A stretch of DNA of 64,000 nt, taken from contig JAWXBZ010000105.1 in the NCBI GenBank assembly GCA_034440375.1, positions 9,431-73,430 on the forward strand, in the 5' to 3' direction. Each line of letters begins with the position of its first letter. Within the stretch, counting starts at the first letter, position 1. The notes under the pieces were generated by a model. The model worked only from the letters and a program-made list of their open reading frames with translations, searched no databases and was not told the origin of the DNA. The position numbers were made by a program, and so were the translations under genes. Source of the DNA: Candidatus Eiseniibacteriota bacterium. Lineage in GTDB: Bacteria > Eisenbacteria > RBG-16-71-46 > JABDJR01 > JAWXBZ01. This document shows positions 25,512 to 42,414 of the stretch, piece by piece.

Positions 25512-25521
25512 CGAAGCAGCC

Positions 25522-26658
25522 TTAGTATCTGACCTGGGTCCAGGCATAGAACTTGTCATCCTGTCGCGCACCGTCCCTCAACTCGCGAAGCTCGTAGTTC
25601 AGCATCAGGCGCCATGGTTTCTTCGGAAGCCCGTAATAGGCGCCGAGAGTCCAGCGCTTGAAGTCATCATCAAGCGTGTCGTATCGAACGATGGGGCCGA
25701 CCTGGGCCTCCGTCTTGCCGACCAGGTTCACGTAGTAACCCGACGGATCGTTCATCTCGCCGGTCTCCACGATCTCGTCCGAGCCACGCACGTATTCGGC
25801 GCTGATGAAGAATCGCGGGTGGTCGAGTTCCACGTCGACACCAAGTCGTTTGAACTTGATCTGCATTTTCTCCTCCCCCAGCAGAAGATCGGCCGGCTCA
25901 ATGAAATCACCGGAAGCCCCGGAGACTCCGAACCTTGCCGTCAGGTTTTCCGGGTCGGATTTCCATCGAAGCCCGACGCGCCCCCACAGGCTCATGCGCG
26001 CCGTATTGTCCTCCTGCACATTCAATCCGGCGCCGTTGACGATGGTGATGGTATCCTCAAAACGGAACCCTTTCGGCCCGAGTTTGACGTTGCCCATCAG
26101 GCCGATCCCAATATCCCGCAGATTGACACCGCGCGACAGGGCGTCGGACAGCTCCGTTCGATTCACCGCGTACAGATTGGTGGATGACTCCGTGTTTTCG
26201 TATCCGAACTGCGTTTTCTGCTGGCCGACCCGAATGTCGTGTCGGGGAATCACTTTGAAATCGACGTACGCATCCCGGAGTATTCCCGTGACTTCCGGAG
26301 CTCGTGGATCGATCTCGATGTTGTAGGAGAGCCACTCGGAAATGTCGCCCTTGACGCCGATACGGACCCTTTGAACACGATAATTGTCGTTGTCGACTAA
26401 GGGGTCGTCGCCGGTCATCAATGAATACTTGTAGTGAATCTGCATGAACCCGAAAACTTCCGGAGGCTTCAACCCCCGTCGTTTCGATGACCTGGGCTGG
26501 TCCGCCGCGCCGGAAATCTTCGGGTCGACGCGGGTGGAATCGACTGCGCCGACGGAACTGTCCATCTGCGCATGACCGACTCCGCACCACAACACGATCA
26601 CGCTGGCCGCGATGGTCGCCGTCCTTCGCATTGGATTGATCGAACGCGTCAAGGACAT
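25522..26658 (-). CDS. Outer-membrane porin (phosphate-selective OprO/OprP-like)
   Basis: Signal peptide; YRVQRVRIGVKG, LRDAYVDF, IRVGQQKTQFGYE, RDIGI; aromatic C-terminus (WTQVRY); GGAGGT RBS before 26658. Confidence 0.78.
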   Translation of the reverse strand: MSLTRSINPMRRTATIAASVIVLWCGVGHAQMDSSVGAVDSTRVDPKISGAADQPRSSKRRGLKPPEVFGFMQIHYKYSLMTGDDPLVDNDNYRVQRVRIGVKGDISEWLSYNIEIDPRAPEVTGILRDAYVDFKVIPRHDIRVGQQKTQFGYENTESSTNLYAVNRTELSDALSRGVNLRDIGIGLMGNVKLGPKGFRFEDTITIVNGAGLNVQEDNTARMSLWGRVGLRWKSDPENLTARFGVSGASGDFIEPADLLLGEEKMQIKFKRLGVDVELDHPRFFISAEYVRGSDEIVETGEMNDPSGYYVNLVGKTEAQVGPIVRYDTLDDDFKRWTLGAYYGLPKKPWRLMLNYELRELRDGARQDDKFYAWTQVRY

Positions 26659-26872
26659 GAAGCGCACCTCCGGAAAAGGACGACTGCCAGGCCATGTGTC
26701 ACCGAACGACACCCCCGGAGGCTCGCAATCAATCTGCGGCCCGGCCGAAAAATCAACGCGAGCATGTGTCAGGGGCAAGAAAGGAACACACCGCCGCCCG
26801 GTTTGTGACATGGATGATTCCGCGGGTGAACCGGGGCCCCTGGTGCCGGAAGGGTGATACATTTGCCAGTCC

Positions 26873-27460
26873 ATGGTCACACGAACCCAACGGGGCCGGG
26901 AGGCCCGAGTCGAGCCCCCCTATCTCCGGGACGCCGAGCTTTTGAAAGCCTGCCGACTGGGAGATGACGCCGCGTGGCGTGAACTGATGCGTCGCTACCG
27001 CGATCTCATCTATTCGATCCCGAGGCGGTACGGGCTCGATGCGGACGACACGGCCGATGTCTTTCAGATTGTCATTGCCGCCCTCTGGAAGGGTCTGGCC
27101 GAGCTCCGTTCGGAGAAGGCGCTGACGCGATGGATCCAGGTGACCACCCGGCGCCAGAGTCAGCGCCAGGCGGAAAAGATTCGGCGGCATGCCTCCGTGG
27201 ACGTACTGGCTCGACAGCCGGACCCGGATTTGCTCGTGTCCGAGAGGCTCCATGCGGCCGAATCGGCCCACCGCGTCCGGCGGGAGCTGGATCGGCTTGG
27301 GAGTCGTTGTCGGGAGATCCTGACCCTCCTGTACATGGAAGAGCCTCCCATGGGATATGACGAGGTTGCGCGGCGCATGGGATTGCCCCGCGGTTCGATC
27401 GGCCCAACGCGGGGCCGTTGCCTGGACAAGCTTCGGGCACTCATGGGAAAAGACTTGTGA
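26873..27460 (+). CDS. ECF-type RNA polymerase sigma factor
   Basis: Region 2 (AWRELMRRYRDLIYSI..DTADVFQ..WI) and region 4 (RCREILTLLY..YDEVARRMG.PRGSIGPTRGRCLDKLR); 195 aa. Confidence 0.93.
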   Translation: MVTRTQRGREARVEPPYLRDAELLKACRLGDDAAWRELMRRYRDLIYSIPRRYGLDADDTADVFQIVIAALWKGLAELRSEKALTRWIQVTTRRQSQRQAEKIRRHASVDVLARQPDPDLLVSERLHAAESAHRVRRELDRLGSRCREILTLLYMEEPPMGYDEVARRMGLPRGSIGPTRGRCLDKLRALMGKDL

Positions 27461-27464
27461 GGAA

Positions 27465-27492
27465 GTATCCGATCGGGGGCCGGCGGTACCTT
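27465..27492 (+). promoter_or_regulatory. Putative ECF promoter, copy 1 (GTATCC-N15-GTACCTT)
   Basis: GTATCC at 27465-27470 and GTACCTT at 27486-27492, immediately after the sigma stop and 23 nt before the anti-sigma ATG; the same motif and spacing recur at 32467. Confidence 0.65.
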
Positions 27493-27515
27493 CCGGCTGG
27501 TAATGGGAGGAGACC

Positions 27516-28151
27516 ATGTCCGTGAAAAGGATTGACGTCGGCGCAAAGACCGGGCACCCGGAAACGGGTGAGCTGCTGGATCAGCTTGAAGGACGGCTGG
27601 CTTTGGACCGACTCCGGGAAGTTGCGACGCACGTGCTGGCCTGCCGACGCTGCCAAAGGTCGATTGAGGAGCTGAAGCGCGTAACCAACTCGCTCGGCGC
27701 ATCGACACTGGAGTCGCCCCCGGAGTGGCTGGCGAACTGGGCGGACGATCGGCCGCGGGATCAGCCGAAAAAGGTTCCGAAGGGTCTGATGCCAATCCTG
27801 AGGCTGGTCCTCGATTCATGGCGTCTCGAACCGCTGGGGGCTCGCGGGGTCGCCCCTTCCAGCCGCCGTCTCCTCTATCGGGCCGGCTCGGTCGATCTGG
27901 ATATTGAACTAGACCTGGGACGCGCGGGCCGGACGGCCACGGTTCGGGGCCAGATTCTTGATGCCACCGTGACCGGTGGGCGACAGTTCTCGGAAGGGCA
28001 CGTTCGGTTACTCGCCGGCCGGCGGCTCGTGGTCAAGGTGCCGCTCGGCACCCGGGGAGACTTCCGGCTGAGCGACGTGCCCCGCCGCGTCTACCACCTG
28101 AATATCGCGGCGGCCGGATTCCGGGTTCGAGTCGATTCATTCGAGATATGA
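27516..28151 (+). CDS. Putative soluble zinc-binding anti-sigma factor with a C-terminal beta-sandwich domain
   Basis: ZAS motif HxxxCxxC (HVLACRRC); no TM helix; LVLDSW..GARG..RRLLY, then a carboxypeptidase-regulatory-like sandwich (VRGQI..GDFRLSDVP..YHL); GGAGG RBS. Confidence 0.8.
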   Translation: MSVKRIDVGAKTGHPETGELLDQLEGRLALDRLREVATHVLACRRCQRSIEELKRVTNSLGASTLESPPEWLANWADDRPRDQPKKVPKGLMPILRLVLDSWRLEPLGARGVAPSSRRLLYRAGSVDLDIELDLGRAGRTATVRGQILDATVTGGRQFSEGHVRLLAGRRLVVKVPLGTRGDFRLSDVPRRVYHLNIAAAGFRVRVDSFEI

Positions 28152-30949
28152 CCCTGTCCGTTCGCGTCGGCGCGCTGGAGCGCGACCTCTTGAACAGCCG
28201 GGGTGATGCCATCCGACCGGCCCATTTCAAAAAATACCTGGCCTCGCTCCAGCGGACCACGCGTCGCGATCCATTGAAAGCTGAGTCCGCATCGAGCCGG
28301 GCCATGCTGGTTGCCCGGGCCGTGGGCGATGGCGTCGCGCTGGCGCATCTGCAGCGGGCACGGGCCCACGCGCGTCGCGCGAGTAACCGATGGCCGGAGG
28401 CGGCCTCGGACTATCGCGCGGCTCTCAAGCGATTTCAGGATCTGGATCGGGCGGACGAATGCGCGTTCACCCGTATCGGCCTGATTGATGCCCTCATGTA
28501 CCTCGGGCGCTACGAGGATGCCCTGTTTGAGGCGCACGCGGCGCGACGAACGGTCCAAAGGCTTGGCGATCCGATTCGCGGCGCCCGCATCGAAAACAAC
28601 ATCGGAAACATTCACCATCGGCGCGATGACCTCGAAACGGCCATCCAATGGTATGACCGCGCGCGGCGGACATTTCGGCGGCGGCACGACGACTCCGCGC
28701 TGGCATTGGTTGAGTTCAACCGCGGAAACGTGCTCGGGCCGATGGGGCGCACCGCCGAGGCGCGGATCGCCTACGAAACCGCCGGGGCCATTTTTTCCCG
28801 GCAGGGCTTCACGGACCGGACGGCCCAGGTGCGGTACAACCTGGCCTACCTTCGCTTTCTCGAAAACCGGTTGCCGGAGGCTCTCGAGGAGTTGGAGCAG
28901 GTCCGCGTGACCTTTCAGGCGACGGGCGATGAACGTCACCTCGGCCTGACGCGACTCGATGAGTCTGAGATCCTTCTCCGCCTGAATCTTTGGGATGACG
29001 CCGGAGAAGCGGCTACCGAAGCCATCCGCCGGCTGAAGGCACTCGGTCTCGACTACGAGCGGGCGAAAGCCCTCACGTTCCTGGCCCTGGCCACGGCCCG
29101 TCGAGGCGATCCGTCGGAGGCGGCGGGCCTGCTGGACTCGGCCCGCGAACTTTTCAAGACGGAAAAAAACCGCTGGTGGGTCGGTGAGACCAGCCTTCAG
29201 CTGGCCCGATTGGCTGTCGGTCGAGGTGCCTGGTCAGAGGCACGGCTGGAAGCGCAGCGGGCACGCCGGACGTTCGCCCGAAGAATATCCAACGAAGCGC
29301 TGGGGCGGGCCCTGCTGATCGAAGCGGAGGCGGCCCGCGGAGCCGGCCGCAGGGCCCAAGCCGGGCGCACGCTGGAGGCGGCGCTTCAGGCCGCCCGGCG
29401 GAGTCGCTCGCCCTGGCTCACGGCGGAAGTTCGCGAGTTGGCGGGACTCCTGGCACTTGACCGGGGCGATGCTGCGACGGCACGGCGCCACTTCAACCAG
29501 GCCATCAAGGCCATTGAACAGCTTCGTGCATTGCTCTCCGGTGACGACCTCCGGGCGGGGTTTCTGCGCGAGCGGGATCGCCCCTATCTGGAATTGGCCC
29601 GTCTCGAACTCGTGGCCGGCCGGCCGCGACAGGCGTTCGAACTATTCGAACGCGGGCGGGCGCGGGCCCTGCTCGACCTCCTGACGGACATGCCGGCGGG
29701 AAAGCGGGCACCAGGCAAGGGTCGCAGGAAATTGGAGACACGAGCCAGGCACCTGCTGTCGGAATTGGGGCGCCGTTATCACGAAGACGACGTCGCCGAA
29801 TCGTCCGGCCAACGACAGTGGACCAGCGCCGGAATATCCGAAGCGCGGGAATCGCTCGAGGCGGAAGCGGCCCGGCTTCTGCGTCGCGTGGATCAAAGCC
29901 CTGGTTCGATCGCCGGGCGGCGTCCCGGTCTCGGCGAGGTGCAACGTCTCCTTCGTCCCGGCGAAACCCTTCTTTCTTTCCACGAAATCGGCGGCCGGGT
30001 CGGGGTATTTCGGATTACCCGGACCCGCTTCGACTCGGTGCCGGACCTGGCCGGCGCGGCCGACATCGAGAGGCTGGCGGAATCGCTGCGATTTCAGTGG
30101 GGGCGGTTCCGCTTCGATGCGGAATTACTGGCACGCCACGGCGCTCAGTTGGAAAGCATGGCCCGGAGCGATCTTCGGCGCCTTCATGAGCTCTTGATCT
30201 CACCCTTTGATTCTCCCTCGGAGAAGGGGCCGCTGATCATCGTTCCGACGGCTGGACTTCGCTCGGTCCCTTTTTCCGCACTCGACGACGGAACGGCGTG
30301 TCTGGCCCGGAGGCGGGCCATCGTCGTGTCGCCCAGTGCGGCGGTCTGGAGCCGTTGCCGGACCCACGAGACGGGCGATGGGGGCCTTGAGAGGGCCGTG
30401 CTCATTGGTATCCCCGACAAGCGGGCTCCGCAGGTTGCCGACGAAATACGGGAGTTGGCCGGGCGGCTACCGGGTGCCCGGGTATTCCTCGGTTCGGAGG
30501 CAACGGCGCACCAATTTCTGGCATCCCTGCCGAAGGCCTCGATCTTGCATGTAGCCACGCATGGCATGTTCCGTACCGATCGCCCGAACCTGTCGGGAGT
30601 CCGACTGTCCGATCGATGGGTCTACGGCTATGAAGTTGCCCGGGGAATGATGCGGGCCCGCCTGGTCGTGCTATCGGCCTGCGTGACCGGGCTTTCCGCC
30701 GCCTGGGCCGGCGGCGATTGGATGGGCCTGGCCCGATCCTTTCTGACCGCGGGAGCCCGCCGGGTTCTGGTAGGCCTCTGGGATGTCGATGACGATGCCA
30801 CCCGGCAATTGATGGGACATTTTTACCGCTTTCTGATCAACGAAGGGCATCTGCCGGCGGAAGCGCTGGCCCGGGCCCAGGCCGAAATGGCGTCCAGCGG
30901 CTGGCACCCGTACTACTGGTCCGGCTTTTCGCTCATGGGAGATCTGTGA
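28148..30949 (+). CDS. TPR-repeat CHAT-domain (caspase/separase-like) cysteine protease
   Basis: Long TPR-like N-terminus; ERGRARALLD; LIIVP..LRSVPFSAL; catalytic His (LHVATHG) and Cys (LVVLSAC); GLARSFLTAGA..LWDVDD; HPYYWSGF. Confidence 0.93.
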   Translation: MTLSVRVGALERDLLNSRGDAIRPAHFKKYLASLQRTTRRDPLKAESASSRAMLVARAVGDGVALAHLQRARAHARRASNRWPEAASDYRAALKRFQDLDRADECAFTRIGLIDALMYLGRYEDALFEAHAARRTVQRLGDPIRGARIENNIGNIHHRRDDLETAIQWYDRARRTFRRRHDDSALALVEFNRGNVLGPMGRTAEARIAYETAGAIFSRQGFTDRTAQVRYNLAYLRFLENRLPEALEELEQVRVTFQATGDERHLGLTRLDESEILLRLNLWDDAGEAATEAIRRLKALGLDYERAKALTFLALATARRGDPSEAAGLLDSARELFKTEKNRWWVGETSLQLARLAVGRGAWSEARLEAQRARRTFARRISNEALGRALLIEAEAARGAGRRAQAGRTLEAALQAARRSRSPWLTAEVRELAGLLALDRGDAATARRHFNQAIKAIEQLRALLSGDDLRAGFLRERDRPYLELARLELVAGRPRQAFELFERGRARALLDLLTDMPAGKRAPGKGRRKLETRARHLLSELGRRYHEDDVAESSGQRQWTSAGISEARESLEAEAARLLRRVDQSPGSIAGRRPGLGEVQRLLRPGETLLSFHEIGGRVGVFRITRTRFDSVPDLAGAADIERLAESLRFQWGRFRFDAELLARHGAQLESMARSDLRRLHELLISPFDSPSEKGPLIIVPTAGLRSVPFSALDDGTACLARRRAIVVSPSAAVWSRCRTHETGDGGLERAVLIGIPDKRAPQVADEIRELAGRLPGARVFLGSEATAHQFLASLPKASILHVATHGMFRTDRPNLSGVRLSDRWVYGYEVARGMMRARLVVLSACVTGLSAAWAGGDWMGLARSFLTAGARRVLVGLWDVDDDATRQLMGHFYRFLINEGHLPAEALARAQAEMASSGWHPYYWSGFSLMGDL

Positions 30950-31042
30950 TGCGCCGTGACGATTGGGCTGGCCACCGGCCGGGGGGGGCCTGTACTCTTT
31001 GATTCCCGCCAAGGACTCATGCCGCCGAAAGGGAATTCTGTC

Positions 31043-32386
31043 ATGACATTCTCATTTCCCACCGCGCGGGCCGCGCTTTCGCTTGGCATCGGTCTGGCCC
31101 TGGCACTCCCGGGCTGCGGCCAGGACACTCTCGAGGAATCGCCCCGGGTTGACAGTTACGCCGCCAGAACCGGCGGCCTCCTGACCGACGACTTCGACAG
31201 TGACGAAATCCTGGCGATCGTGGACCCAAATTTCGACCCCGGCACCATCGCCATCGAACACGGGCTGCTGCTGGTCGATGAACTGCCGGACGGACTCTCG
31301 ACACGCTTTCGAGTGCCAGCCGGGGGCGTCCTGGCGCAGGAGGAAGCCGAACTGGCGCTCGATCCGCGCGTTCTCGGCGTCGACAGGAACCTCTTCGTCA
31401 TCGACACCGAGACGCGACAATCGAGCATGGCCTTCGACGAGGGCAATTTTGTGGAAGGCGCCGTCGGTGACCAGGGCTTTCTGCGCCTGCTCCACGTGGC
31501 CCGGGCGCACGATCGCACCCGGGGCGATGGGGTGGTCGTTGCCATTCTTGATACGGGAATAGACTTCAGCCATCCGGCCCTGGCCGGGCACATTCATCCG
31601 GCGAGTCGTGACTTCCTCGACGGCGACACCGACGCCTCCGAATCCCCCAACGGCATTGATGACGATGGCGATGGATTCATCGACGAGGCCCTGGGTCATG
31701 GCACGCATGTGGCCGGACTCGTCCGCCTGGTGGCCCCGGAAGCCAAAATCATGGTCCTTCGGGTCCTGGACGCCGATGGGCGGGGCCCGGCCTGGGGCGT
31801 AGCGCAGGCAATCGAATATGCCGCTGATCAGGGCGCGTCGATCATCAACATGAGCCTCGGCATGTTGAGCAAACCCGAGATCATGGATGAGGCTCTCAGC
31901 TACGCGGCCGACCGGGGTGTGATCATGGTCGGCTCGATCGGCAACTGGGGGGCGGAGGATCCGGAGGAGTACCCTTCGTCCAGCAGCTCGGTCTGGGCTG
32001 TCGTCGCCACGGATCACGAGGATCGGGCCGCCACGTTCACGAGCTATTCCAGCCACGCCGCGATCGCCGCCCCGGGAACCCTGATCCGCAGCGCCCACTA
32101 TGGCGGCGGCTCGGCCGTCTGGAGCGGCACGTCGATGGCCTCACCGCTGGTGGCGGGCACTGCGGCGCTTCTCCTCTCCATTCACGCCGATTGGACGCCC
32201 GCCATGGTCCTGGCGCGTATCCAGTCCACCGCCCGGCCGGTTACTCCCCTGCATTCGGAACAGATTGGCGAACTGGGCGCCGGCCGGATCGACGTGGGAG
32301 CAGCCCTCGCGGCCGATCAGCACGACGGCACCGCAAACGACGATGGCGAGGGCGAGGTGTACTGGAATCGTCGAACCCGGCGCTGA
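31043..32386 (+). CDS. S8 subtilisin-like serine peptidase, predicted lipoprotein
   Basis: Lipobox LALPGC; triad VAILDTG, GHGTHVAG, SGTSMA; Ca-loop-like NGIDDDGDGFIDE. Confidence 0.92.
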   Translation: MTFSFPTARAALSLGIGLALALPGCGQDTLEESPRVDSYAARTGGLLTDDFDSDEILAIVDPNFDPGTIAIEHGLLLVDELPDGLSTRFRVPAGGVLAQEEAELALDPRVLGVDRNLFVIDTETRQSSMAFDEGNFVEGAVGDQGFLRLLHVARAHDRTRGDGVVVAILDTGIDFSHPALAGHIHPASRDFLDGDTDASESPNGIDDDGDGFIDEALGHGTHVAGLVRLVAPEAKIMVLRVLDADGRGPAWGVAQAIEYAADQGASIINMSLGMLSKPEIMDEALSYAADRGVIMVGSIGNWGAEDPEEYPSSSSSVWAVVATDHEDRAATFTSYSSHAAIAAPGTLIRSAHYGGGSAVWSGTSMASPLVAGTAALLLSIHADWTPAMVLARIQSTARPVTPLHSEQIGELGAGRIDVGAALAADQHDGTANDDGEGEVYWNRRTRR

Positions 32387-32429
32387 GCCAGGGCGGGGGC
32401 TGACACCCCGCTGACCCCAATTTAGCAGG

Positions 32430-32456
32430 AGCCCGCTCCGGAGCGGGCTTTTTCTT
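32430..32456 (+). terminator. Rho-independent terminator
   Basis: AGCCCGCTC-CG-GAGCGGGCT inverted repeat followed by TTTTCTT, downstream of the S8 gene. Confidence 0.85.
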
Positions 32457-32466
32457 GCCCGATTGT

Positions 32467-32494
32467 GTATCCCGTGTCCACCGGACCGTACCTT
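32467..32494 (+). promoter_or_regulatory. Putative ECF promoter, copy 2 (GTATCC-N15-GTACCTT)
   Basis: GTATCC at 32467-32472 and GTACCTT at 32488-32494, just after the terminator and at the head of the glycosyltransferase operon. Confidence 0.65.
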
Positions 32495-32545: not shown

Positions 32546-33757
32546 ATGGCACGGCGAATTGCCGCCTACTCGCACGATACCGTCGGACTCGGGCACCTGC
32601 GCCGCACCCTGACCATCACCCGCCATCTCGGGGCACGGCGCCCCGACTTGAACTCGCTCATCATCTCCGGTTCCCCATTCGTCCAGGCGATGGGTTCCTA
32701 TGATCGAATCGATTTCCTCAAACTCCCCGCGGCGAAGAAAATTCGGAACGGGCACTACGAAGCCCGGTACCTCGGCCTCGACTTTGATCACTTCAACCGG
32801 TTTCGATCAGGCGTCATCGACGAGGGGCTCCGGGCTTTCGAGCCCGATCTCCTGATCATTGACAAGACGCCGGGGGGGATGAACGGCGAATTGCTTCCCT
32901 GTTTGCGGCGCCTTCGGGAGACCGGCGCGCGGACGCGGGTGGTCCTTGGTCTGCGCGATATCCTGGACGAGGCGCCGAACCAGCGTGCCGAGTGGACGGC
33001 CACCGGCGACTGGCAGACGCTCGACGAACTCTATGATGCGATCTGGATCTACGGCTCGGCGGACGTTTTCAACCCGGTTACCGAGTACGGCTTCAGCGAT
33101 ACCATGGCCGCGCGCACGTCTTTTCTGGGCTACCTCCCAAAGTACAACGGAATTCGGCCCGTCGAGGCCATCCGGGCTGAACTTGACGCAAAGGATCAGC
33201 CGCTCCTGGTCTTGAGCCCCGGCGGCGGCGAGGACGGTTACGAACTTCTGTCACTCTTTCTCGAAGCGAGGGACGGGGGCTTCCTTCCGACCGGACACCT
33301 GCCGGTCCTGGTCACCGGACCAGGCATGCCGGAAGCGCGCGTGGCCGAACTCCGGCATCGCCTCGGCGCCAACGGCCGATTGCTGGAGTTCAGCGATCAT
33401 TTCACGTCAATTCTGGCGGCCGCCGACCTGGTGATCACCATGGGTGGCTACAACACGCTCACCGAAGCGCTCTGCCTTGGCAAGCGGGTGGTCTCGGTTC
33501 CCCGCGTGCGCCCGAGGCGCGAGCAGTGGATACGGGCACAGCGATTCGCCGAGCGCGGGCTGCTGACAATGGTCGAGCCGGACGGTGCCTCCCCGGCCAC
33601 ACTCGGCGCCGCGATCCGTCATGAACTCGGCCGCGACGTGAGCACCGGATGCCTCCCGCTCGATTTCGGGGGCCTGGAACGGCTGGACGACGAATATGCC
33701 CGCCTCTTCGACAATGAGATGCCGGCCCTTCAAAGCGAGTCCGGAGCAACGCGATGA
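32546..33757 (+). CDS. GT-B glycosyltransferase (COG4671 / GT28 C-terminal-like)
   Basis: YSHDTVGLGHLRR, VLGLRDILD, PGGGEDG, MGGYNT..E, VPR..PRREQ.IRA. Alternative in-frame ATG at 32501. Confidence 0.88.
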   Translation: MARRIAAYSHDTVGLGHLRRTLTITRHLGARRPDLNSLIISGSPFVQAMGSYDRIDFLKLPAAKKIRNGHYEARYLGLDFDHFNRFRSGVIDEGLRAFEPDLLIIDKTPGGMNGELLPCLRRLRETGARTRVVLGLRDILDEAPNQRAEWTATGDWQTLDELYDAIWIYGSADVFNPVTEYGFSDTMAARTSFLGYLPKYNGIRPVEAIRAELDAKDQPLLVLSPGGGEDGYELLSLFLEARDGGFLPTGHLPVLVTGPGMPEARVAELRHRLGANGRLLEFSDHFTSILAAADLVITMGGYNTLTEALCLGKRVVSVPRVRPRREQWIRAQRFAERGLLTMVEPDGASPATLGAAIRHELGRDVSTGCLPLDFGGLERLDDEYARLFDNEMPALQSESGATR

Positions 33758-35082
33758 CGACGCCCGCGACAACACACGCTCCGCTTTGCGTGGCCTACCT
33801 CGTCAAGACCTGGCCGCGCCTCTCGGAGACATTTGTCCTGAACGAGATTCTGGCGCTGGAGGCGCGCGGCGCCATCGTCACGATCCTGGCCCTGAAGCGC
33901 CCGGCGGAGCGTCGCTTCCACGAGAAACTGGCGCGTGTGCGCGGGGACGTGTTGTACGCGCCGGAGGTACGGCCGAATCAAGTCCTTTCCTTCCTCGCAT
34001 CGCAGCACAAACACCTGGCCGGGGCGGAAGTGCTTCTATCGCGGCACTTCTGGACGTCCCTGGATCAGGCGGACGATGAGGGCCTGGAGTCGCTGATTCC
34101 CGCGATCGCATTTCTGCCGGTGGTTGTCGAACGGCAAATCGACCACCTTCATGCCCATTTCGCCACCTCGGCCGCCGCCACGGCCATGCGGCTGGCATCG
34201 CTCGCCGGAATCGGTTGGTCAATGACGGCCCACGCCAAGGATATTTTCCACCAATCGGTTTCAAGTGACCGCCTGCGCGAGAAGGTGGCGTCGTCACGCT
34301 TCACCGTGGCCGTGAGCGACTGGAGCGCCGACTTCCTGCGCGACGTCGTCGGTCACCCGGCCGCATCAAACGTGCGGCGGCTGTACAACGGTCTCGATCT
34401 GACTGAATTTCCGACGCCGCGGTTCGGGGGGGCCGGCACGGAAACAGCGGCCTGCCTGCCGGAACTCCCGGTCACTCCGGGGCGGATTCTTTCCGTGGGT
34501 CGCCTCGTGCCGAAGAAAGGCTTCGGCACTCTGCTTCTGGCGGCGCGTCGACTCATCGATCAAGGCCACGACATTCACGTCGACCTCGTTGGTGACGGCG
34601 AACTGCGCGTCGAACTGGAGCGTCGCATCCACGAGCTCAACCTCGACGCGAGAGTCCACCTGCTTGGCGCGCAGTCCCACGATGCCGTCCGGCAGCTCAT
34701 GCAATCGTCGACGCTGTTCGCGCTCCCGGCCGAAGTGGCGGAGGACGGCAATCGTGATGGATTACCCGTCGTGGTCGTGGAGGCCATGGCATCGGGACTT
34801 CCGGTCCTCTCAACGCCAGTGGTCGGCATCCCCGAGGCGGTCCTCGATGGGATCACCGGCCGCCTTGTCCCGGAAAGGGATCCGATCGCCTTGGCCGGCG
34901 CAATAGCCGAACTCCTCGCCGATCGCGCGGGTGCCGCGCGGCTGGCGGAGGCCGGCCGGCGACGCGTGGACGAGCACTTCGACGGCGCGCGTTCGGCGGC
35001 CACGCTTCACGAGTGGTTCCAGGGGGCCGTACGACTGGAGGCGGCGAAACCGAAATCGATGATGGAGGCGGTCGGTCGATGA
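33754..35082 (+). CDS. Glycosyltransferase family 4 (WcaL-like)
   Basis: WPRLSETFVLNEI, HLHAHFA, TAHAKDIF, VGRLVPKKG, DGLPVVVVEAMA. Confidence 0.92.
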   Translation: MTTPATTHAPLCVAYLVKTWPRLSETFVLNEILALEARGAIVTILALKRPAERRFHEKLARVRGDVLYAPEVRPNQVLSFLASQHKHLAGAEVLLSRHFWTSLDQADDEGLESLIPAIAFLPVVVERQIDHLHAHFATSAAATAMRLASLAGIGWSMTAHAKDIFHQSVSSDRLREKVASSRFTVAVSDWSADFLRDVVGHPAASNVRRLYNGLDLTEFPTPRFGGAGTETAACLPELPVTPGRILSVGRLVPKKGFGTLLLAARRLIDQGHDIHVDLVGDGELRVELERRIHELNLDARVHLLGAQSHDAVRQLMQSSTLFALPAEVAEDGNRDGLPVVVVEAMASGLPVLSTPVVGIPEAVLDGITGRLVPERDPIALAGAIAELLADRAGAARLAEAGRRRVDEHFDGARSAATLHEWFQGAVRLEAAKPKSMMEAVGR

Positions 35083-36248
35083 ACTGGCTCGTCCTCGCAA
35101 ACGACTTCGGCGTCCCATGGCACGGCACCAAGGGGGCCTCGATTCACCTCCGATCGATGGCCGAAGCCCTGGCCACCGGCGTCGACTCCGTCGAGGTGGC
35201 GGTGCGGCGCCTCGGCCGGCCGACCGCCGGAAATCCTGGCCATGGGCGAGTCATTCTGACCGGGCTCGCAACCACGGAACCGCCGACCAATCCGGCGTTC
35301 GATCCCGATCGGATGAACGCGGAATTGCTTGCGTGGATCCTGGAGCGGCATCGCCACTCTCCGTTCGATGCCATCTACGAGCGCTATGCCCTTTGGACGG
35401 TGGCGGGACTCGATGCCGCCCGAAAGCTCGGCATTCCCCATCTACTTGAAGTCAACGCGCCGCTGGTGGACGAGGCCTCCCGCTGGCGGAACCTGGAACT
35501 CACGGTGACCGCCCGGGCGGCGGAACATCGCCTGGCCATGGACGGTGATCATCTTCTGGCGGTGTCGTCACCGATCGCACGACATCTGCTCCGACTTGGC
35601 GCCAATCCCGACCGAATTCATGTTGAAGGCAACGGCGTGGCAGATGCGTTCCTCCGCGTGGAACGGCGCCACGAAGCCGGTACCTCTCCTTTCGTGGTGG
35701 GATTCGCCGGCAGTTTGAAACCATGGCACGGACTGTCGACGCTGGTTTCGGCATTCGATCGACTCGGCGGCGCCGCCTCGGGTTGGCGGCTCCGCATCGT
35801 CGGCGAGGGTCCCATGGCAGAATGGCTGCGCGCGGCTGCAGAGACGCGTGAGGGGGTCGTCCTCACCGGCCCAATGCCGCACGAGTCGATTCCCGGCGAA
35901 CTGGCCCGAATGGATGCCGGCGCCGCGCTCTACGAAGAGGTCGGCGAGGGGTACTTCTCGCCGCTCAAGGTGGCCGAGTACCAGGCGGCAGGGCTCCCCG
36001 TGGTGGCCTCGGGCGGCGCCGGGGTCCGTGAGATGATCACGCATGGCAACGACGGCCTCCTGGTCCAGGAAGGCGATGTGGCCGGGGCCGCCACGGCCTT
36101 CGAACGGATTCGCTTCGAATCAAACCTTTCGGCCACGCTCGCGGCGGCCGGCCGATGCCGCGCGGCGGCCCGCACCTGGTCTGCCATCGCCGCACGTTGT
36201 CGCACACTGGCCTCGGGTCAGTCGCCCTGCGCAGAGATCGGTCGATGA
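35079..36248 (+). CDS. Glycosyltransferase family 4
   Basis: GTKGASIH, IYERYAL, LEVNAPL..E, GFAGSLKPWHG, YFSPLKV.EY.A.G.PVV; ATGA overlap with the upstream gene. Confidence 0.92.
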   Translation: MNWLVLANDFGVPWHGTKGASIHLRSMAEALATGVDSVEVAVRRLGRPTAGNPGHGRVILTGLATTEPPTNPAFDPDRMNAELLAWILERHRHSPFDAIYERYALWTVAGLDAARKLGIPHLLEVNAPLVDEASRWRNLELTVTARAAEHRLAMDGDHLLAVSSPIARHLLRLGANPDRIHVEGNGVADAFLRVERRHEAGTSPFVVGFAGSLKPWHGLSTLVSAFDRLGGAASGWRLRIVGEGPMAEWLRAAAETREGVVLTGPMPHESIPGELARMDAGAALYEEVGEGYFSPLKVAEYQAAGLPVVASGGAGVREMITHGNDGLLVQEGDVAGAATAFERIRFESNLSATLAAAGRCRAAARTWSAIAARCRTLASGQSPCAEIGR

Positions 36249-38863
36249 CGACCAGAGCGGCCCTGTCGAAGCCTTCCAGGACGCTCGTTGAAGACCGGCT
36301 GTCACACCTCGAGGAAGTCCTTGATGCGGGAGCCGTCGGGCGTGCCCTCTTCGATCACCTCGGAGGAGCCGGGTTCAAACCCAATGGGGCCCGCGTCACC
36401 TATCTGAATCACAAACCGGCGGTCGGGGCCCTGATCGGGTATCAATTCGACTTGATCGGGCGCGATGAACCGCTGCGGGCGGCCGGCCGGCTCGTTCCGG
36501 CGGCGCGGCTTGGCGCGGTACGGATTGCACTCGAAAGCTGGGCCCTTCGCCACCCGGGGGCACAGGTCATCCACCTTCATCCGTGGCCACTGGTGGTCAC
36601 ACTCTATCCGCATGACCGACACCTTCCGGGACTTTCCGTGCTGGGCCAGAAGGGAAAGTTCAAGCGCCATGTGGACGCGATGGGGATCGGCGCCGGCTTT
36701 GAAGGGGGCCGCGTCAGCGGCGGGCGGACGACACGCCGGCTTCTCACCTGGAAACCCGGGCGCCGGGCCGTCCTCTGCGCCGACCTCGTCTTCGTGGACA
36801 GTACGGGTCGGCACCTGGGCGAACGGGCCGTCATCGTCAAAGCCTACGCGGACAGCACCGGGCGCGAAACACGCGAGTGGATGACGGCGCTTCAGGCCAT
36901 CGGCGACCTGCCGAAGCCGCTCAGGCTGGCCATTCCGCTGGCCTGGGACGATTCCCGAAAGATCCTCTATCAGGAACGACTGGCCGGCGAGCCGCTCCTG
37001 GAATCGACAACAGCTGTGGAGGCGGCGCGAACCGCGGGGCGATGCCTTGGCGGGCTTCATGGGATTTCGCCCATGAGGGGTGCACCCGGATCGACAAGAC
37101 AAGTCCGGTCGGCACCCAGCGTTCTCGGTCAGGTGCGCGCCGTCTCCTGTCATTTTTCGGAGATCCTTCGGGAGATTGGAGCAGGAGCTGGCGGCCGACT
37201 CGGTCAACAACTGGACGGACTGGTAACGCGCCTCGATCAAACGATCGGCGACACCGAATGCGGTTCCCCTGACGATCTCAGAGTCATCCACGGCGATTTC
37301 CACGCCGGACAGATTCTGATCGAGAAGGATCGAATCGGCCTCATCGATCTGGACGAGATGCGGGCCGGGGATCCCCGCCTCGATCTGGCCACGTTTCGGG
37401 CCCATCTCACGTCCCAGGCGCTGGCGGGGCTGATGCCGATGGAGCGGGCGACAGCCATCGACAACGCCTTCCGGGACGGGTACCGCGACGGGTGCGGCAC
37501 TCTTCGGGGTCAGGGCTGGTTCGATGCCGCCGGGTTGGCGCTCCTGACGCTGGAACCGTATCGTCGGCGCGATCCGAACTGGGAGGCGACAACGGCAAGG
37601 ATCATCGAATCAGCCGAGGCACTCGTGGCGCCGACCCCGGCTCGTCGACCCCGGGCGCCGCACGATGCCGAATCAATGGTCGAGCGGCTTCTGGATCGAG
37701 ACGGGGCCCTTTCCCTCCTGAACGGTCTCCTCGAGGCTCGTGGTTCCACTACCCGGCTTCTCGAGGTTCGAAAAGGGGGGCTCAAGGTCAAGAATGAACG
37801 GCTGGAAGGAACCTTTGACGTTGTCGTCAAGACGGCCGCGACTGGAAATGGACACCGGCCGATCACCCATCTCGGCATCGCATTGCCACACGACCATCAA
37901 GGTTCGGACGATCAGTTGAGCCTCCATCTCTCGCCCGAGGATCCGGCCCTGCCGATGTCATGGATCGAGTCGCCCCAAACACGGTTCCGCACGGCGACTC
38001 TTCTCGGTCCTGGCCGCCCGGAGTTCCGGCTCGTGCGCCATCGACACGGCTCTCGCGCGGCCTGGCAGGCGGTTGCGCCGGGCCCGGGCAGGCCGGCCGT
38101 TGCCCTCAAGCTGCGACGCCGCTCTCCGCGTTGGTTCGTAACCGGGGCGGATGAACTTGTTCCGTGGACAGTCCGGCTGCCGTCGCCGCGCAGAACCTTT
38201 GCCACGGCACAGGAGTGGGTCGGCGGCCCTTCGCTGCACGAACGGATCATGACCGTCGGGGCCACCTCGTCGGAACTGGGCCGGGTGGGTCAGCTCGTCG
38301 GTCGTTTTCACCGCGAGGCGCGACTCGTCCCCGCCGGCCGAACGGGCGTGGTGAACACGAGGACGCTCGGCAACGAGCTCGAATCGCTTGCACGTCAACT
38401 GGCCACGATGCCGGTGGCGCCCGATGAGTTGATCAACGGCGTCGCCTCCCGGCTGGATCAGGCTCGTAAACGGTTACCAGGAGCGGTCCGATCCATCGCC
38501 GCCCTGCATGGCGATCTACACGATCGGCAGGTGTTACTCGAGGGGGATCGACCGGTTGTCATCGACTGCGACATGGCCTCTCCCGGGGAGGCGGAACTGG
38601 ACGTTGGCAATTTTCTGGCTCACCTCGTGCTCCGGGCCGTGCAGCTCGGGAAGGATCCGACTCACATTTCCAGCGGGGCCGGTGTCTTTCGCCGGGCCGC
38701 GGAGGATGCCTCGCTCCGCCCGCTGGACAGGGACAGACTCATCGCACATGTCGCCTGCTCCCTCCTTCGCCTGGTGCTTCTCTATCGACTCAGGATCGGG
38801 GGACGCCGTTTCGGCCCGGCGCTCCTGGCGGCGCACGACGTAGCCGGAGATTGGGTGACATGA
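36245..38863 (+). CDS. Tandem aminoglycoside-phosphotransferase (APH/choline kinase)-like protein with two kinase domains
   Basis: Two Brenner-type motif pairs: HGDFHAGQIL..IDLDE..GDP..DLATF and HGDLHDRQVL..IDCD..GE..LDVGNF; upstream WKPGRRAV..VKAY. Confidence 0.82.
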   Translation: MTTRAALSKPSRTLVEDRLSHLEEVLDAGAVGRALFDHLGGAGFKPNGARVTYLNHKPAVGALIGYQFDLIGRDEPLRAAGRLVPAARLGAVRIALESWALRHPGAQVIHLHPWPLVVTLYPHDRHLPGLSVLGQKGKFKRHVDAMGIGAGFEGGRVSGGRTTRRLLTWKPGRRAVLCADLVFVDSTGRHLGERAVIVKAYADSTGRETREWMTALQAIGDLPKPLRLAIPLAWDDSRKILYQERLAGEPLLESTTAVEAARTAGRCLGGLHGISPMRGAPGSTRQVRSAPSVLGQVRAVSCHFSEILREIGAGAGGRLGQQLDGLVTRLDQTIGDTECGSPDDLRVIHGDFHAGQILIEKDRIGLIDLDEMRAGDPRLDLATFRAHLTSQALAGLMPMERATAIDNAFRDGYRDGCGTLRGQGWFDAAGLALLTLEPYRRRDPNWEATTARIIESAEALVAPTPARRPRAPHDAESMVERLLDRDGALSLLNGLLEARGSTTRLLEVRKGGLKVKNERLEGTFDVVVKTAATGNGHRPITHLGIALPHDHQGSDDQLSLHLSPEDPALPMSWIESPQTRFRTATLLGPGRPEFRLVRHRHGSRAAWQAVAPGPGRPAVALKLRRRSPRWFVTGADELVPWTVRLPSPRRTFATAQEWVGGPSLHERIMTVGATSSELGRVGQLVGRFHREARLVPAGRTGVVNTRTLGNELESLARQLATMPVAPDELINGVASRLDQARKRLPGAVRSIAALHGDLHDRQVLLEGDRPVVIDCDMASPGEAELDVGNFLAHLVLRAVQLGKDPTHISSGAGVFRRAAEDASLRPLDRDRLIAHVACSLLRLVLLYRLRIGGRRFGPALLAAHDVAGDWVT

Positions 38864-40635
38864 CCGGCCGGCGCGCGCGCACAATCATGCCCATCATCGC
38901 CCGGACCACCGGCTTCCTCTACCTGGTTGGTGGAGCGTGCGTCTCGATCGCATCCGGGCCGGCTCCTTCGTTGAGCGACCTCCGGCCGGGTGACTGGGTC
39001 GAAGTCAGTGTGACACCCGCTGCCTCTGGCGGCTGGCAGGGCAACGAGGTCGATCTGAAGGATCACAGCGGAATAGCCGGAGGGTCACTGACCGGCACAC
39101 TCCAAACGATGGCGGACGGCAGACGGTCGATCCTGGGTCACCCCATGGCCATTTCGGCCAGTACAGCGATCAAGGACACCGCGGGCCTGAACATCGCCGC
39201 GAGCGCCCTGCTCGACGGGCTCATCGTCGAAGCGCAAATCCAGTCGGAAGGCGACGGATGGAGCGCGCTGAAGCTCAAAGTAAGGCCCGACGATGTCGAA
39301 TGGGAAATAGAGGGGTCCCTGGAGGCCGTGGTTCCAGGTGATCCGACGGTGCTGCGTGTCCTCGGCTTCGACATTCGCACCACACCCGACACGATTGTCC
39401 GGCGTCGTGCCCGGAAGGCGACTCAAATCCCGGGCGTCGATGACGACGATGTCCGACCATCCCGCGCGATTGCCGTGGGGCCGTACCAGGTCGGAATGGT
39501 GGCTGGCCTGGAATTCGACCCGCGCCGCAACTATGACATCAACAGCGCCCGCGACCGCAATCTCTCGCTGCTCGACATGTCGGCCCTGATCGAGGCGACC
39601 GCCCGTTCGGGTGACCGTTGGCGGTCCTTCATCAAAGGGGGTTACCGCCGACAGGAGGTGTTGCTCGACGAGCGCGGTACCCGAGCCGGCAGCCAGCGCT
39701 GGCAACTCGAGGAGGCCTGGATTGCCCGATCCGGGTTCCTCCACCCGGACCTGGCAATCCAGGTTGGGCGGCAGGACTTCGACGAGGCCCACGAGTGGCT
39801 CTACGACGAAAACCTGGATGCGATTCGACTCCACTGGCTTCCCGTCGGAGCTCACGCCACCGCGTCTCTGAGCACGCGACTCGATGACAATGACCCGACT
39901 TCCCACGATCTCTGGAACGGGTTGGTCACACTTGACTGGACCATGAATCCTGACCGGGCCTTCGGCCTGGTGGTGCTATCGAGGTACCCCATCGCCGGCG
40001 CGCCATTGCCCACGCGGACGTGGATTGGGGCCCGGGCCCTCCGGATTCGAATTGGCCGATTCCGGGGATGGGGCGATGTCTCCGTCCTGCGAGGCCATGC
40101 GGGTGTCTCGAAGATCCGCGCCCAGGCCGCTCATCTGTCGACCAGCTTTCTCCTGTCCCGGGCGGGCCGGTTGACCCTCAACGCGGCCTGGGCACGCGGT
40201 TCCGGGGACAACGATCCGGCCGACGGGATCGACGGCACGTATCGCCAGACGGGCTTTCATGACAACAATGATCGATTCGGCGGTGTGACCGGCTTTCGCT
40301 ACTACGGGGAGATGCTGAGGCCGGAGCTGTCAAATCTTTCCGTTGTCACACTCGGCTTCGGGAGTCGCCCAACGCCGAGCAGCTCCATCGACCTCGTCTA
40401 TCACCACTACCGACAGGTTCATGCGGCTCCCTACCTGTCCGAGTCGAACCTCGATGCGAATCCTCTTGGCCTCAACCCCGATCTCGGACACGAAATCGAC
40501 CTGATCATCGGTATCCGGGAGTTTTCGAATATGCGCCTGGAGGGGGTGATAGCTGCCTTCTTCGCGGGCCCTGCCTTTCTTGTCGACTCGGAGACGGCCG
40601 TCAACAGCCGCCTCCAGGTCGATGTGAGTTTCTGA
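38860..40635 (+). CDS. Alginate-export (AlgE)-family outer-membrane barrel with N-terminal DUF5666-like repeats
   Basis: LRPGDWVEV and EIEG..LRVLG repeats; LEEAW, QVGRQDF...WLYDENLDAIR, ARGSGD, YRQTG, LGHEID; terminal Phe. Confidence 0.8.
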   Translation: MTGRRARTIMPIIARTTGFLYLVGGACVSIASGPAPSLSDLRPGDWVEVSVTPAASGGWQGNEVDLKDHSGIAGGSLTGTLQTMADGRRSILGHPMAISASTAIKDTAGLNIAASALLDGLIVEAQIQSEGDGWSALKLKVRPDDVEWEIEGSLEAVVPGDPTVLRVLGFDIRTTPDTIVRRRARKATQIPGVDDDDVRPSRAIAVGPYQVGMVAGLEFDPRRNYDINSARDRNLSLLDMSALIEATARSGDRWRSFIKGGYRRQEVLLDERGTRAGSQRWQLEEAWIARSGFLHPDLAIQVGRQDFDEAHEWLYDENLDAIRLHWLPVGAHATASLSTRLDDNDPTSHDLWNGLVTLDWTMNPDRAFGLVVLSRYPIAGAPLPTRTWIGARALRIRIGRFRGWGDVSVLRGHAGVSKIRAQAAHLSTSFLLSRAGRLTLNAAWARGSGDNDPADGIDGTYRQTGFHDNNDRFGGVTGFRYYGEMLRPELSNLSVVTLGFGSRPTPSSSIDLVYHHYRQVHAAPYLSESNLDANPLGLNPDLGHEIDLIIGIREFSNMRLEGVIAAFFAGPAFLVDSETAVNSRLQVDVSF

Positions 40636-40653
40636 AGTTGTCCACACATCAAG

Positions 40654-42414
40654 ATGAGGATTCCGACCATGCCCGCTGAAATGACTCGAATCGGACGCCG
40701 CACGCCAGCGGCCCTTCTGTGCTTCGGAACGGCTCTGATTTTGTCCGTCGGTCCGGCCTCGGCCTGGACGATTTCCGGGCATGTCACGAACTCCAACGGT
40801 CAGAACGCCGTGGATGTCGACCTCGACTTTGAGGATCGAAGCACCGGAACGATCCTCGACACACCGGGCGACAGGACGGACGCATTCGGCAACTACAGCG
40901 TGACCGTTCCAACCGGTGACTACCGGATCTACTTCAATGCCACGCCGGCCTCACACCTGTTCGACGGCAGTGTGGACGCGACAATCACCTCAGATAGGAC
41001 GATTGACATGGTCTTGAATGTTGGGACGTACGTCAGTGGCGACGTGGTCGACATGGATGGCTTCGGCCTCGCCTTCGTCGACCTGAATTTCTACGATGTT
41101 TCCAGTGGCGCCAACCTCGGGTACGCGGGCGACGACTCCGACGCTTTTGGAAACTTCGCGGTGCTGGTCGATCCGGGCCTGACCTTCGACATCCTCTTCC
41201 GGCCGGCGATCGGCGACCCGCATTGCGCGCGCCAGATCGAGAACGTCGCGGTCGGCACGTCGGACATCGTTCTGCCCCCGGTGGTCCTGGAAAGCGGCGC
41301 GTTTGTCTCAGGAAGCGTCCACCGCACGGACAACGGCAACCCGGTGGTCGATGCCGATATCGACGCCACGAATACTCTGACTGGTGAACGTCGGACCCGG
41401 CTCGGCTTAGACAACACGGACGGATCAGGAGCCTTTCAGGTCGTGCTGCCCGCCGGCACCTGGGACATCACAGCCACTCCCCCGGCCGGGCAGGGGCTGG
41501 CGGCGGAAATCGTTCCCGCTGTGGTCGTCAGCGGCTCCGTCTCGACCGGCACGATCCAGCTGCCCGTCGGCTACAGCATCACGGGCACCGTCCTTGGCCC
41601 GGGGAACGCGCCGCAGTCGGATGCCAACGTCGATCCTGTGCATGTCGTGCGCCGTATCGAGATGCCGACGTCAGGCGACCACACGACCCCCTCCGGGCAG
41701 TACGCCATGATCCTGGCGGCGGCGACGTACGATTTCCTGGTCTGGCCGCCCCCGGGAGCGCCGCTGGCGGTCGGTGTTCTGCGCAATCGAAGCGTGACCG
41801 GGGCTGCCACCCTGCCGACCGTCAACTTGTCCGGCGGTGTCGTCATCCAGGGCACCGCGAAGACCCCCTCGGGTCTGCCGGTCCGCGATGCCGACATCAA
41901 CGCCGAGCAGCTGGCCGATGCGTTCGTTTACCCCACCCGTGACGACAATACCAACGGGTCCGGGGTCTACGCGATCCGTGTGCCGGCGGGATCGTATCGA
42001 CTCATCGCCCGTCCCCCCGTCGGGAGCGGGCTGGTGGCCGATACGGTTGTCGTGGCTGCGACATCAAACCAGACGGTCCACTTCACGTTCGGCGTGACGA
42101 CGCCCAGTGGCGTCGGGGACAGCCGCCCTCCGTCCCGCCTGGCGCTGGCCACGGAACACGATATCGCCGCCGGAGCCGTGGCCTTCCGGTTCTCACTGCC
42201 ACCGGGCCAGGCCATGCCGACAACCCTCCGGATCTACTCCGCTGATGGCCGCCTGCGCCGGACACTGATCGACGAAGTTATGGACGGCGGATCCCACCTC
42301 ACAAGGTGGGACGGGCGGGACGGCTCCGGTCGTCGCCTCCCGTCGGGAATGTACTTCGTCCGACTGGCATCGGCTTCCGACGCAGTTAACGCCCGGGCTG
42401 TCCTGGTGGAATGA
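40654..42414 (+). CDS. Secreted protein with five carboxypeptidase-regulatory-like repeats and a FlgD/T9SS-like C-terminal domain
   Basis: Signal peptide; five units of about 88 aa with pattern G.V...G....D.D......GD.TD..G.Y....P.G.Y; C-terminus IYSADGRLRR..WDGRD..GMYFVRL. Confidence 0.8.
   Translation: MRIPTMPAEMTRIGRRTPAALLCFGTALILSVGPASAWTISGHVTNSNGQNAVDVDLDFEDRSTGTILDTPGDRTDAFGNYSVTVPTGDYRIYFNATPASHLFDGSVDATITSDRTIDMVLNVGTYVSGDVVDMDGFGLAFVDLNFYDVSSGANLGYAGDDSDAFGNFAVLVDPGLTFDILFRPAIGDPHCARQIENVAVGTSDIVLPPVVLESGAFVSGSVHRTDNGNPVVDADIDATNTLTGERRTRLGLDNTDGSGAFQVVLPAGTWDITATPPAGQGLAAEIVPAVVVSGSVSTGTIQLPVGYSITGTVLGPGNAPQSDANVDPVHVVRRIEMPTSGDHTTPSGQYAMILAAATYDFLVWPPPGAPLAVGVLRNRSVTGAATLPTVNLSGGVVIQGTAKTPSGLPVRDADINAEQLADAFVYPTRDDNTNGSGVYAIRVPAGSYRLIARPPVGSGLVADTVVVAATSNQTVHFTFGVTTPSGVGDSRPPSRLALATEHDIAAGAVAFRFSLPPGQAMPTTLRIYSADGRLRRTLIDEVMDGGSHLTRWDGRDGSGRRLPSGMYFVRLASASDAVNARAVLVE

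Follow-up and report, generated by a model that had tools for sequence, protein, structure and literature searches.

What holds, and what releases, the sigma factor encoded in a four-gene cassette of a Candidatus Eiseniibacteriota bacterium (GenBank assembly GCA_034440375.1)? The cassette lies within the 64,000-nucleotide stretch that we analysed (contig JAWXBZ010000105.1, positions 9,431 to 73,430 of the forward strand; hereafter the window), and comprises genes for a sigma factor of the extracytoplasmic function (ECF) type, a protein with a zinc-binding motif encoded directly after it (the +1 protein), a protease that joins tetratricopeptide repeats to a CHAT domain (TPR-CHAT), and an exported subtilase of family S8. 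We confirm that this cassette is a real feature, and the reading that we favour, to which as a whole we assign a probability of about 0.55, is that it encodes an ECF54-like sigma switch gated by proteolysis, with an output directed at the cell envelope.

In the resting state of such a switch, the soluble +1 protein would hold the sigma factor through its zinc domain, as its homologies suggest, and its immunoglobulin-like (Ig) domain would, according to a structural model, dock on a helical hairpin of TPR-CHAT, bringing the linker between the two domains near the enzyme. CHAT would be activated by a signal in the cytoplasm, for which the long TPR solenoid is the probable sensor, and would then cut the linker, most likely after Arg110 in the manner of separases, and so free the sigma factor. 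The freed sigma would fire two promoters predicted from the DNA, namely P1, leading to expression of the anti-sigma factor, CHAT and the subtilase, and P2, leading to expression of an eight-gene operon for glycan synthesis and export, with the subtilase being part of the response.

We used the CHAT protein to follow the cassette through 61 related genomes, of which 29 gave a match at E 1e-40 or better. The regions fetched cover 43 of the 45 CHAT matches (two short contig pieces were excluded), seven Acidobacteriota loci were added, and 48 loci besides the window, selected by CHAT similarity alone, were compared. The sigma, +1 and CHAT genes follow one another on one strand in 42 of the 48, and because the loci had been picked by CHAT alone, this gene order is not due to chance. 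The remaining six comprise two loci at contig ends, one without a detected sigma gene, one rearranged and two of a distant type. The first-pass annotation, made from the letters of the window alone, had proposed a cassette of four genes conserved together and independent of CRISPR. The ordered trio bears this out for the first three genes, and no RAMP-domain gene is found in the genome, which is 93.7% complete; the S8 gene, however, is a looser companion, being within the fetched region in 37 of the 48 loci, at variable position and on either strand, and missing from 11, five of these with full flanks. Breadth beyond the window's class rests on the seven Acidobacteriota loci and one actinobacterial locus. 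The same genome carries a paralogous cassette in the same order on contig C18 (L001:5515-11171; 31-44% identity) and a third CHAT-domain gene near the end of contig C233 (16001-16873). Elsewhere, locus L045 has a tandem duplicated cassette with one CHAT in two frames, L069 has a single CHAT between two sigma/+1 pairs, and in L071 the cassette is rearranged.

A single-sequence search with the +1 protein returned three proteins only, and a profile search was needed to find its relatives; a scan of a viral sequence collection with this protein gave no relative. Its ligands H14, H39, C43 and C46 follow the class I zinc anti-sigma (ZAS) pattern, H/C-x~24-H-x3-C-x2-C in an N-terminal helical bundle. 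Consistent with this, its profile matches the anti-sigma factors RsiW, RslA, ChrR and DdvA in the PDB (E 3e-6 to 8e-3), and in its structure model (predicted local distance difference test, pLDDT, 86) a flexible linker connects a helical domain at the N-terminus to a beta-sandwich, with ChrR as the best Foldseek match. A zinc anti-sigma domain with an HxxxCxxC motif (H39-x3-C43-x2-C46), no transmembrane helix (best 19-residue hydropathy 0.73) and a stop codon overlapping the CHAT start as ATGA had all been read from the window before, and all stand. Across 28 aligned homologues, chosen from the first round of matches, H14, H39, C43, C46, D100 and R110 never vary. In a larger set of 126 proteins, made up of the window's own and 125 full-length matches of a profile search that favours full-length forms, the full set of zinc ligands is present in 122, D100 likewise in 122, R110 in 125 and G145 in all 126; the linker, LDSW..GARG, contains, in D100 and R110, the most conserved residues of the family. 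The Pfam match of the Ig-like part to CarboxypepD_reg is sub-threshold in the window (E 0.006) and in 5 of the 28 family members. To judge from these sequence relationships, the +1 protein is highly likely to be an anti-sigma factor.

The catalytic residues of the protease are intact. Pfam places the CHAT domain at residues 675-932 (E 2.6e-53), accompanied by TPRs, and H801, H805, E766 and C845 are kept without exception (37 of 37), in agreement with the earlier description of intact catalytic residues (H805 in THG, C845 in SAC). The structure model (pLDDT 90) matches separase, Csx29 and DdvA in fold, and the top Foldseek matches of the CHAT fold are separases, including separase-securin complexes, while the TPR region has a generic similarity to the peptide receptors Rap and NprR (E 1e-6 to 1e-5). 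The first-pass annotation had proposed modelling of the complex as a check, and we folded CHAT residues 70-933 together with +1 residues 85-211. The model scored 0.70 against 0.00 for the best control, a mark that is reached by 116 of 157 solved complexes and by 2 of 215 mismatched pairs, counts that are only rough with the alignments used here. The runs share at least 71% of their contacts with a partner pLDDT of at least 76, and place CHAT helices 646-671 against one sheet of the Ig domain, with conserved residues on both surfaces (F649 of CHAT in 30/37; G145 and Q146 of the +1 protein in 126/126 and 113/126). The model therefore supports docking of the Ig domain on the helical hairpin of TPR-CHAT, and binding of the two proteins is likely. 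That CHAT goes on to cut the +1 protein and free the sigma factor is a proposition to which we would give even odds. The cut would probably fall after the near-invariant Arg110, because this residue is conserved, lies in a low-confidence, flexible loop of variable length in the model, and would suit an enzyme of separase specificity, separases cutting after Arg in the account available from PMC11506125. Since Craspases cut after Met or Leu according to the same account, an Arg specificity of this CHAT is tentative.

We then consider what the sigma factor would transcribe. A two-part motif was first read from the DNA that follows sigma stop codons, and a pattern was drawn from those sites. Of 46 cassettes, 15 have the pattern no further than 160 bases behind the sigma stop, where shuffles give a mean of 0.44 and the reverse strand gives none; this count is partly circular because the pattern derives from the same regions. 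Behind the CHAT stop it is present in 8 of 47, against a mean of 1.1 in shuffles, and in several relatives it falls within the 3' end of the sigma gene itself. In its exact form, GTATCC-N15-GTACCTT, the motif is present twice in the window (27465 and 32467; 0 in 100 shuffles) and at the same two sites only in the whole genome, with none for a reversed-pattern control. Genome G001 has three exact sites, located before its +1 gene, a second S8 gene and the orthologous glycosyltransferase gene. An independent matrix was trained on 35 sigma 3' regions of other genomes, neither the window nor G001 being among them; its consensus is GGTATCAA...CGACT. It reaches 10 bits or more upstream of 9 of 17 glycosyltransferase genes of the GT28-like family that opens the operon behind P2, against 2 of 160 controls from coding sequence and 7 of 340 shuffles; the two genomes that have the GT28-like gene and no CHAT match score below 0.

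The Acidobacteriota provide a different view of the same motif. A pattern specific to them finds 26 sites in five genomes (control 0), and its -35 element is GTCT at 16 of 17 sites in the three genomes whose sigma recognition helix reads GETSISP and GTAT at 7 of 9 sites in the two whose helix reads GSIGPT. Because the -35 element co-varies with the recognition helix in this way, the comparison suggests that the cassette's sigma factor reads the motif. Thirteen Acidobacteriota sites outside cassettes were examined, many of them before apparent signal-peptide proteins (subtilases, barrel proteins and a di-haem peroxidase), and some of the thirteen are probably chance occurrences. Autoregulation of the sigma gene was rejected, as the pattern lies upstream of it in 1 of 46 cassettes; the sigma gene appears not to be under its own control, with its predicted promoter lying behind it, before the inhibitor, the protease and the subtilase. 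We conclude that the motif is very probably the promoter of this sigma factor and the glycan operon one of its targets.

The second exact copy, P2, lies just past the putative terminator of the cassette and 52 bases before the start of the first glycosyltransferase gene of an eight-gene run (32546-45889). Six of the seven junctions in this run are ATGA overlaps and the whole operon is syntenic in G001. The GT28-like gene is matched in 17 of the 61 genomes, and a CHAT match is present in 15 of these 17 against 14 of the 44 others, although such related genomes are not independent; at two Acidobacteriota loci, a GT28-like gene stands directly behind the motif, after the S8 gene. The earlier description ended the feature at the S8 gene and a terminator, and missed this probable target operon; because of the second copy of the motif at 32467-32494, its right-hand boundary was probably too narrow. 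The four co-directional open reading frames do lie where it had put them, Pfam agrees with their assignments, and a terminator-like signal is readable 3' of the S8 gene as a perfect 20-base palindrome (32430-32449) followed by a T-run. A terminator scan at the palindrome lists only an overlapping weaker stem, and RNAfold of 32421-32465 gives a different fold of -20 kcal/mol. A second arrangement with glycosyltransferase targets is seen at L044, L047 and L078, where GT4 genes that point away from the cassette have the motif before them. The CarboxypepD_reg repeats that make up the exported pair within the operon (40654-44150) belong to the fold family of the +1 protein's docking domain, which is probably a coincidence.

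Several of our results weigh against the proposed switch and its output. Regarding the promoter, 3 of 17 reverse-strand controls also reach 10 bits, the window's own sites score 8.9 and 9.7 on the independent matrix and thus fall under this mark, and the matrix is unspecific genome-wide, with 599 matches at 10 bits compared with 720 in reversed sequence. The covariation of helix and -35 element amounts to one evolutionary event among relatives that are not independent. No P1-like motif was found for the paralogous C18 cassette or for its counterpart in G001 (L040), and the C18 cassette may for this reason read a different promoter. Only 9 of 49 loci, the window included, have a GT28-like gene within the region fetched, so that the glycan operon is better seen as a recurrent target than as a fixed member of the system. 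Regarding the proteins, H805, C845 and R110 are all absent from the confident contacts of the complex model, which therefore does not represent the geometry of cleavage. Of the 51 +1 matches at the loci examined, 8 lack the zinc motif or have a degenerate form of it (one of them cut by a contig end), and the actinobacterial +1 protein, from Nonomuraea, is also without a zinc domain; the conserved core of the +1 family would hence be the linker and Ig domain and not the zinc domain. A genome-wide scan with the loose matrix was rejected as a source of regulon members, being unspecific, and its match on contig C241 falls within coding sequence.

The linker and Ig domain are retained without a zinc motif at L005:5155-5634, L008:4963-5457, L055, L059 and L061, much as in the actinobacterial form, and several losses of the zinc domain are possible. 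This persistence is one of the points in favour of another way to view the +1 protein, as a securin-like inhibitor or an adaptor of CHAT, with R110 as a pseudo-substrate or a structural residue, in which case the sigma factor would be freed by partner exchange, or CHAT would cut some other target such as the sigma factor. The modelled docking site lies apart from the active site, as such a role would allow, the best fold matches of CHAT include separases in complex with securin, and proteolysis of the ECF54 sigma factor itself is proposed in the part of a review drawn on here (PMC8999054). Against it, 122 of the 126 homologues have a complete zinc domain, albeit in a set whose profile favours full-length forms, and R110 is in a flexible loop of variable length, as expected for a cut site; we consider this arrangement unlikely.

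The zinc domain also admits a reading in which it is itself the sensor, of redox state or zinc as in RsrA and ChrR, with CHAT and the subtilase merely being induced effectors, for example of defence or controlled cell death. The domain does resemble those of ChrR, RslA and RsiW, the CHAT gene does lie downstream of the predicted promoter P1, and PADLOC gives a weak match to BovA (E 5e-4). However, this would not explain the strict adjacency of the +1 and CHAT genes or the modelled docking on conserved surfaces, and the cassette persists where the zinc domain is gone. Nor was an effector toxin or defence gene seen in the cassette, the flanks having been searched only for homologues of window genes and motif-led open reading frames. 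We regard a zinc-domain sensor as improbable, and return to the protease-gated switch for the place of the subtilase within it.

The subtilase carries a Peptidase_S8 domain (E 1.4e-46) with its Asp-His-Ser triad, and the first-pass annotation, correct about the intact triad (D170, H219, S364) and lipobox (Cys25), had suggested that perhaps a peptide made by this exported enzyme is imported, binds the TPRs and activates CHAT. The proximity of an S8 gene to CHAT in 37 of 48 loci and the generic likeness of the TPR region to Rap and NprR are in keeping with this, and a protease that is an output could still feed back. However, the S8 gene has the sigma motif before it at all 7 Acidobacteriota loci as well as in G001 and Nonomuraea, and this frequency makes the subtilase appear to be one of the sigma factor's outputs and not its trigger. 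In addition, 11 of the 48 loci (five with full flanks) manage without an S8 gene whose position and strand otherwise vary, no gene for a peptide precursor or importer was recognised in the cassette, and the subtilase is exported whereas CHAT is cytoplasmic. A peptide trigger of this kind is thus very improbable. TAnnnT elements resembling a housekeeping -10 were seen by eye shortly before several S8 genes (30990-31000 in the window, and after the CHAT stop in L001, L039, L041, L057, L063, L068 and L072), and a second, sigma-independent S8 promoter is possible; a sigma-70 promoter scan gave nothing over chance level. An upstream GTG at 30956 offers an alternative start for the subtilase, giving 476 aa.

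The gene content of the cassette is less novel than had been thought. In the portions available of the catalogue of Casas-Pastor et al. 2021 (PMC7826278), group ECF54 is 100% actinobacterial, always has a carboxypeptidase-regulatory-like domain at +1, has a subtilase and TPR-CHAT, and is given no putative anti-sigma factor; its predicted promoter elements are GTATCAG (-35) and CTCC (-10). Proteolysis as the mechanism of ECF54 also appears, as an untested proposal, in the corresponding part of the review already cited (PMC8999054). The window shares with this description its ECF sigma factor, CarboxypepD_reg-like +1 protein, and nearby subtilase and TPR-CHAT. The -35 element so described agrees with the consensus GGTATCAA of the relatives and with GTATCC here, while the -10 element is GTACCTT here and varies by lineage, fitting CTCC in some lineages only. 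As far as that description extends, the window differs in its non-actinobacterial host, in the full zinc anti-sigma domain of its +1 protein, in an S8 enzyme that is a lipoprotein, and in having a glycan operon as candidate target.

A direct link to the actinobacterial group comes from a Nonomuraea gerenzanensis locus, found with the window's sigma factor, which shows the ECF54 context. Its +1 protein of 156 residues is homologous to that of the window (profile E 1e-11; hhalign probability 95%) and retains the Ig domain as well as the conserved D and R, with the zinc domain lacking; its sigma factor has the same region 4.2 motif, and a GTATCAG motif precedes its S8 gene. In a FastTree phylogeny of 57 sigma factors, the Nonomuraea sigma is placed among some of the cassette sigmas at a support of 0.91, but their union with the window's sigma in one clade is supported at just 0.60. 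As to the ECF-group assignment called for earlier, the window's system resembles ECF54 in its workings and probably belongs to the ECF54 clade. Three other actinobacterial sigma matches (L105-L107) have no CHAT or +1 gene nearby. Two of them, at L105:7589 and L106:9842, are on Streptomyces plasmids, where a related sigma has the promoter motif nearby, L106 being in a fatty-acid or polyketide cluster.

Known circuits outside ECF54 resemble the cassette in part. In DdvS/DdvA of Myxococcus xanthus, a zinc anti-sigma domain, an ECF sigma factor and TPR-CHAT likewise form one circuit for which CHAT-dependent release is proposed in the account available to us (PMC11506125), and our profile and fold matches include the structures 8rlz, 8rot and 8rw5. 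In that account, a single membrane-spanning protein, DdvA, carries its CHAT in the periplasm and governs a CBASS-CRISPR island, whereas the parts encoded in the window are separate open reading frames, cytoplasmic, with no transmembrane helix in the +1 protein and no membrane step. The Csx29/Csx30/CASP-sigma module of type III-E systems, as far as the source extends (PMC10028731), also places a TPR-CHAT in the cytoplasm together with an ECF sigma factor and a soluble inhibitor of sigma, and Csx29 is among the fold matches. The earlier statement that no Cas genes or array accompany the locus agrees with the lack of a RAMP match in the genome and with the absence of any CRISPR-like repeat family among the 20 largest listed for the window; PADLOC and NCBIfam gave no match to their Csx30 or Csx31 models. 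The activating signal here, in contrast to type III-E, cannot be pairing of a CRISPR RNA with its target. A cas1 gene is present on another contig (C181:944-1795); a CRISPR link through it was rejected, the exact motif having no copy there. With separases, the protease shares a TPR-like solenoid joined to a clan CD protease, as well as the top Foldseek matches. Separases are eukaryotic and about 12% identical, and Arg specificity of the window's CHAT would hold by analogy. Sigma factors are also present in myxobacterial metacaspase operons, going by the part of PMC3501461 drawn on, with no direct bearing on this case.

What is new relative to the catalogued kind is a probable hidden anti-sigma factor for an ECF54-like sigma, a modelled docking of protease on candidate substrate and a predicted envelope-glycan output. 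In the literature covered, ECF54 has no studied member and no anti-sigma factor, the role of its proteases is at the stage of a proposal, and stand-alone bacterial TPR-CHAT proteases of this kind have no known substrate. Our search found neither an experimental study of an ECF54-type cassette nor a link to a glycosyltransferase operon, with subscription papers outside its scope, so that an earlier description of the anti-sigma factor or targets is possible. What the locus adds is a protein that may be the substrate, a residue at which it may be cut, a surface modelled for docking and two natural predicted promoters, together with a candidate regulator for a glycosyltransferase-kinase-exporter operon. 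A bolder generalisation, which we put forward tentatively and think doubtful as a whole, is that the switch is widespread and CRISPR-free: an Arg-specific TPR-CHAT would carry its Ig-docked substrate, cut it on a cytoplasmic cue and free an ECF54-type sigma factor, which would remodel the surface through an undescribed phosphorylated-glycan pathway and exported proteases, perhaps to protect the cell from phage or predators. A separase-like switch of this kind would provide ECF54 with its missing anti-sigma factor, a mechanism and a first output.

Table 1. Features of the cassette and of the candidate target operon, in positions of the window
Feature	Position	Strand	Basis
ECF sigma factor, ECF54-like clade (probable), 195 aa, region 4.2 motif GSIGPTRxRC	26873..27460	+	Pfam Sigma70_r2/r4, TIGR02937, motif comparison, tree
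Candidate promoter P1, GTATCC-N15-GTACCTT, between sigma stop and +1 gene	27465..27492	+	Predicted site
Soluble +1 protein, 211 aa: zinc anti-sigma domain (putative), linker, Ig-like (CarboxypepD_reg-like) domain	27516..28151	+	Alignments, profile matches, model, Foldseek
Cytoplasmic TPR-CHAT protease, 933 aa (H805, C845)	28148..30949	+	Pfam, invariant dyad, structure model, complex model
Lipoprotein S8 subtilase, 447 aa from ATG (D170, H219, S364; lipobox Cys25)	31043..32386	+	Pfam, motifs
Terminator-like palindrome plus T-run	32430..32453	+	Read from sequence
Candidate promoter P2, second exact motif copy	32467..32494	+	Predicted; orthologous site in G001
GT28-like glycosyltransferase, operon gene 1	32546..33757	+	Pfam Glyco_tran_28_C; motif upstream of homologues
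Two GT4 glycosyltransferases	33754..35082, 35079..36248	+	Pfam; ATGA overlaps
Tandem APH-fold phosphotransferase	36245..38863	+	Pfam APH, two stretches
Alginate-export-type outer-membrane barrel with DUF5666	38860..40635	+	Pfam
Two exported paralogues, CarboxypepD_reg repeats and FlgD-Ig tail	40654..42414, 42411..44150	+	Pfam
ABC exporter, last gene of candidate target operon	44147..45889	+	Pfam; operon syntenic in G001

On the other side of the cassette, genes for Porin O/P, VTC and DUF4956 proteins (24145-26660, minus strand) point away from the sigma gene, with no copy of the motif before them, and the porin genes of the window point to a diderm host. Further out, positions 20120-24075 hold a gene for an exported protein of 1127 aa with an HExxH motif and lamin-tail and FlgD-Ig domains, together with a small coupled gene upstream.

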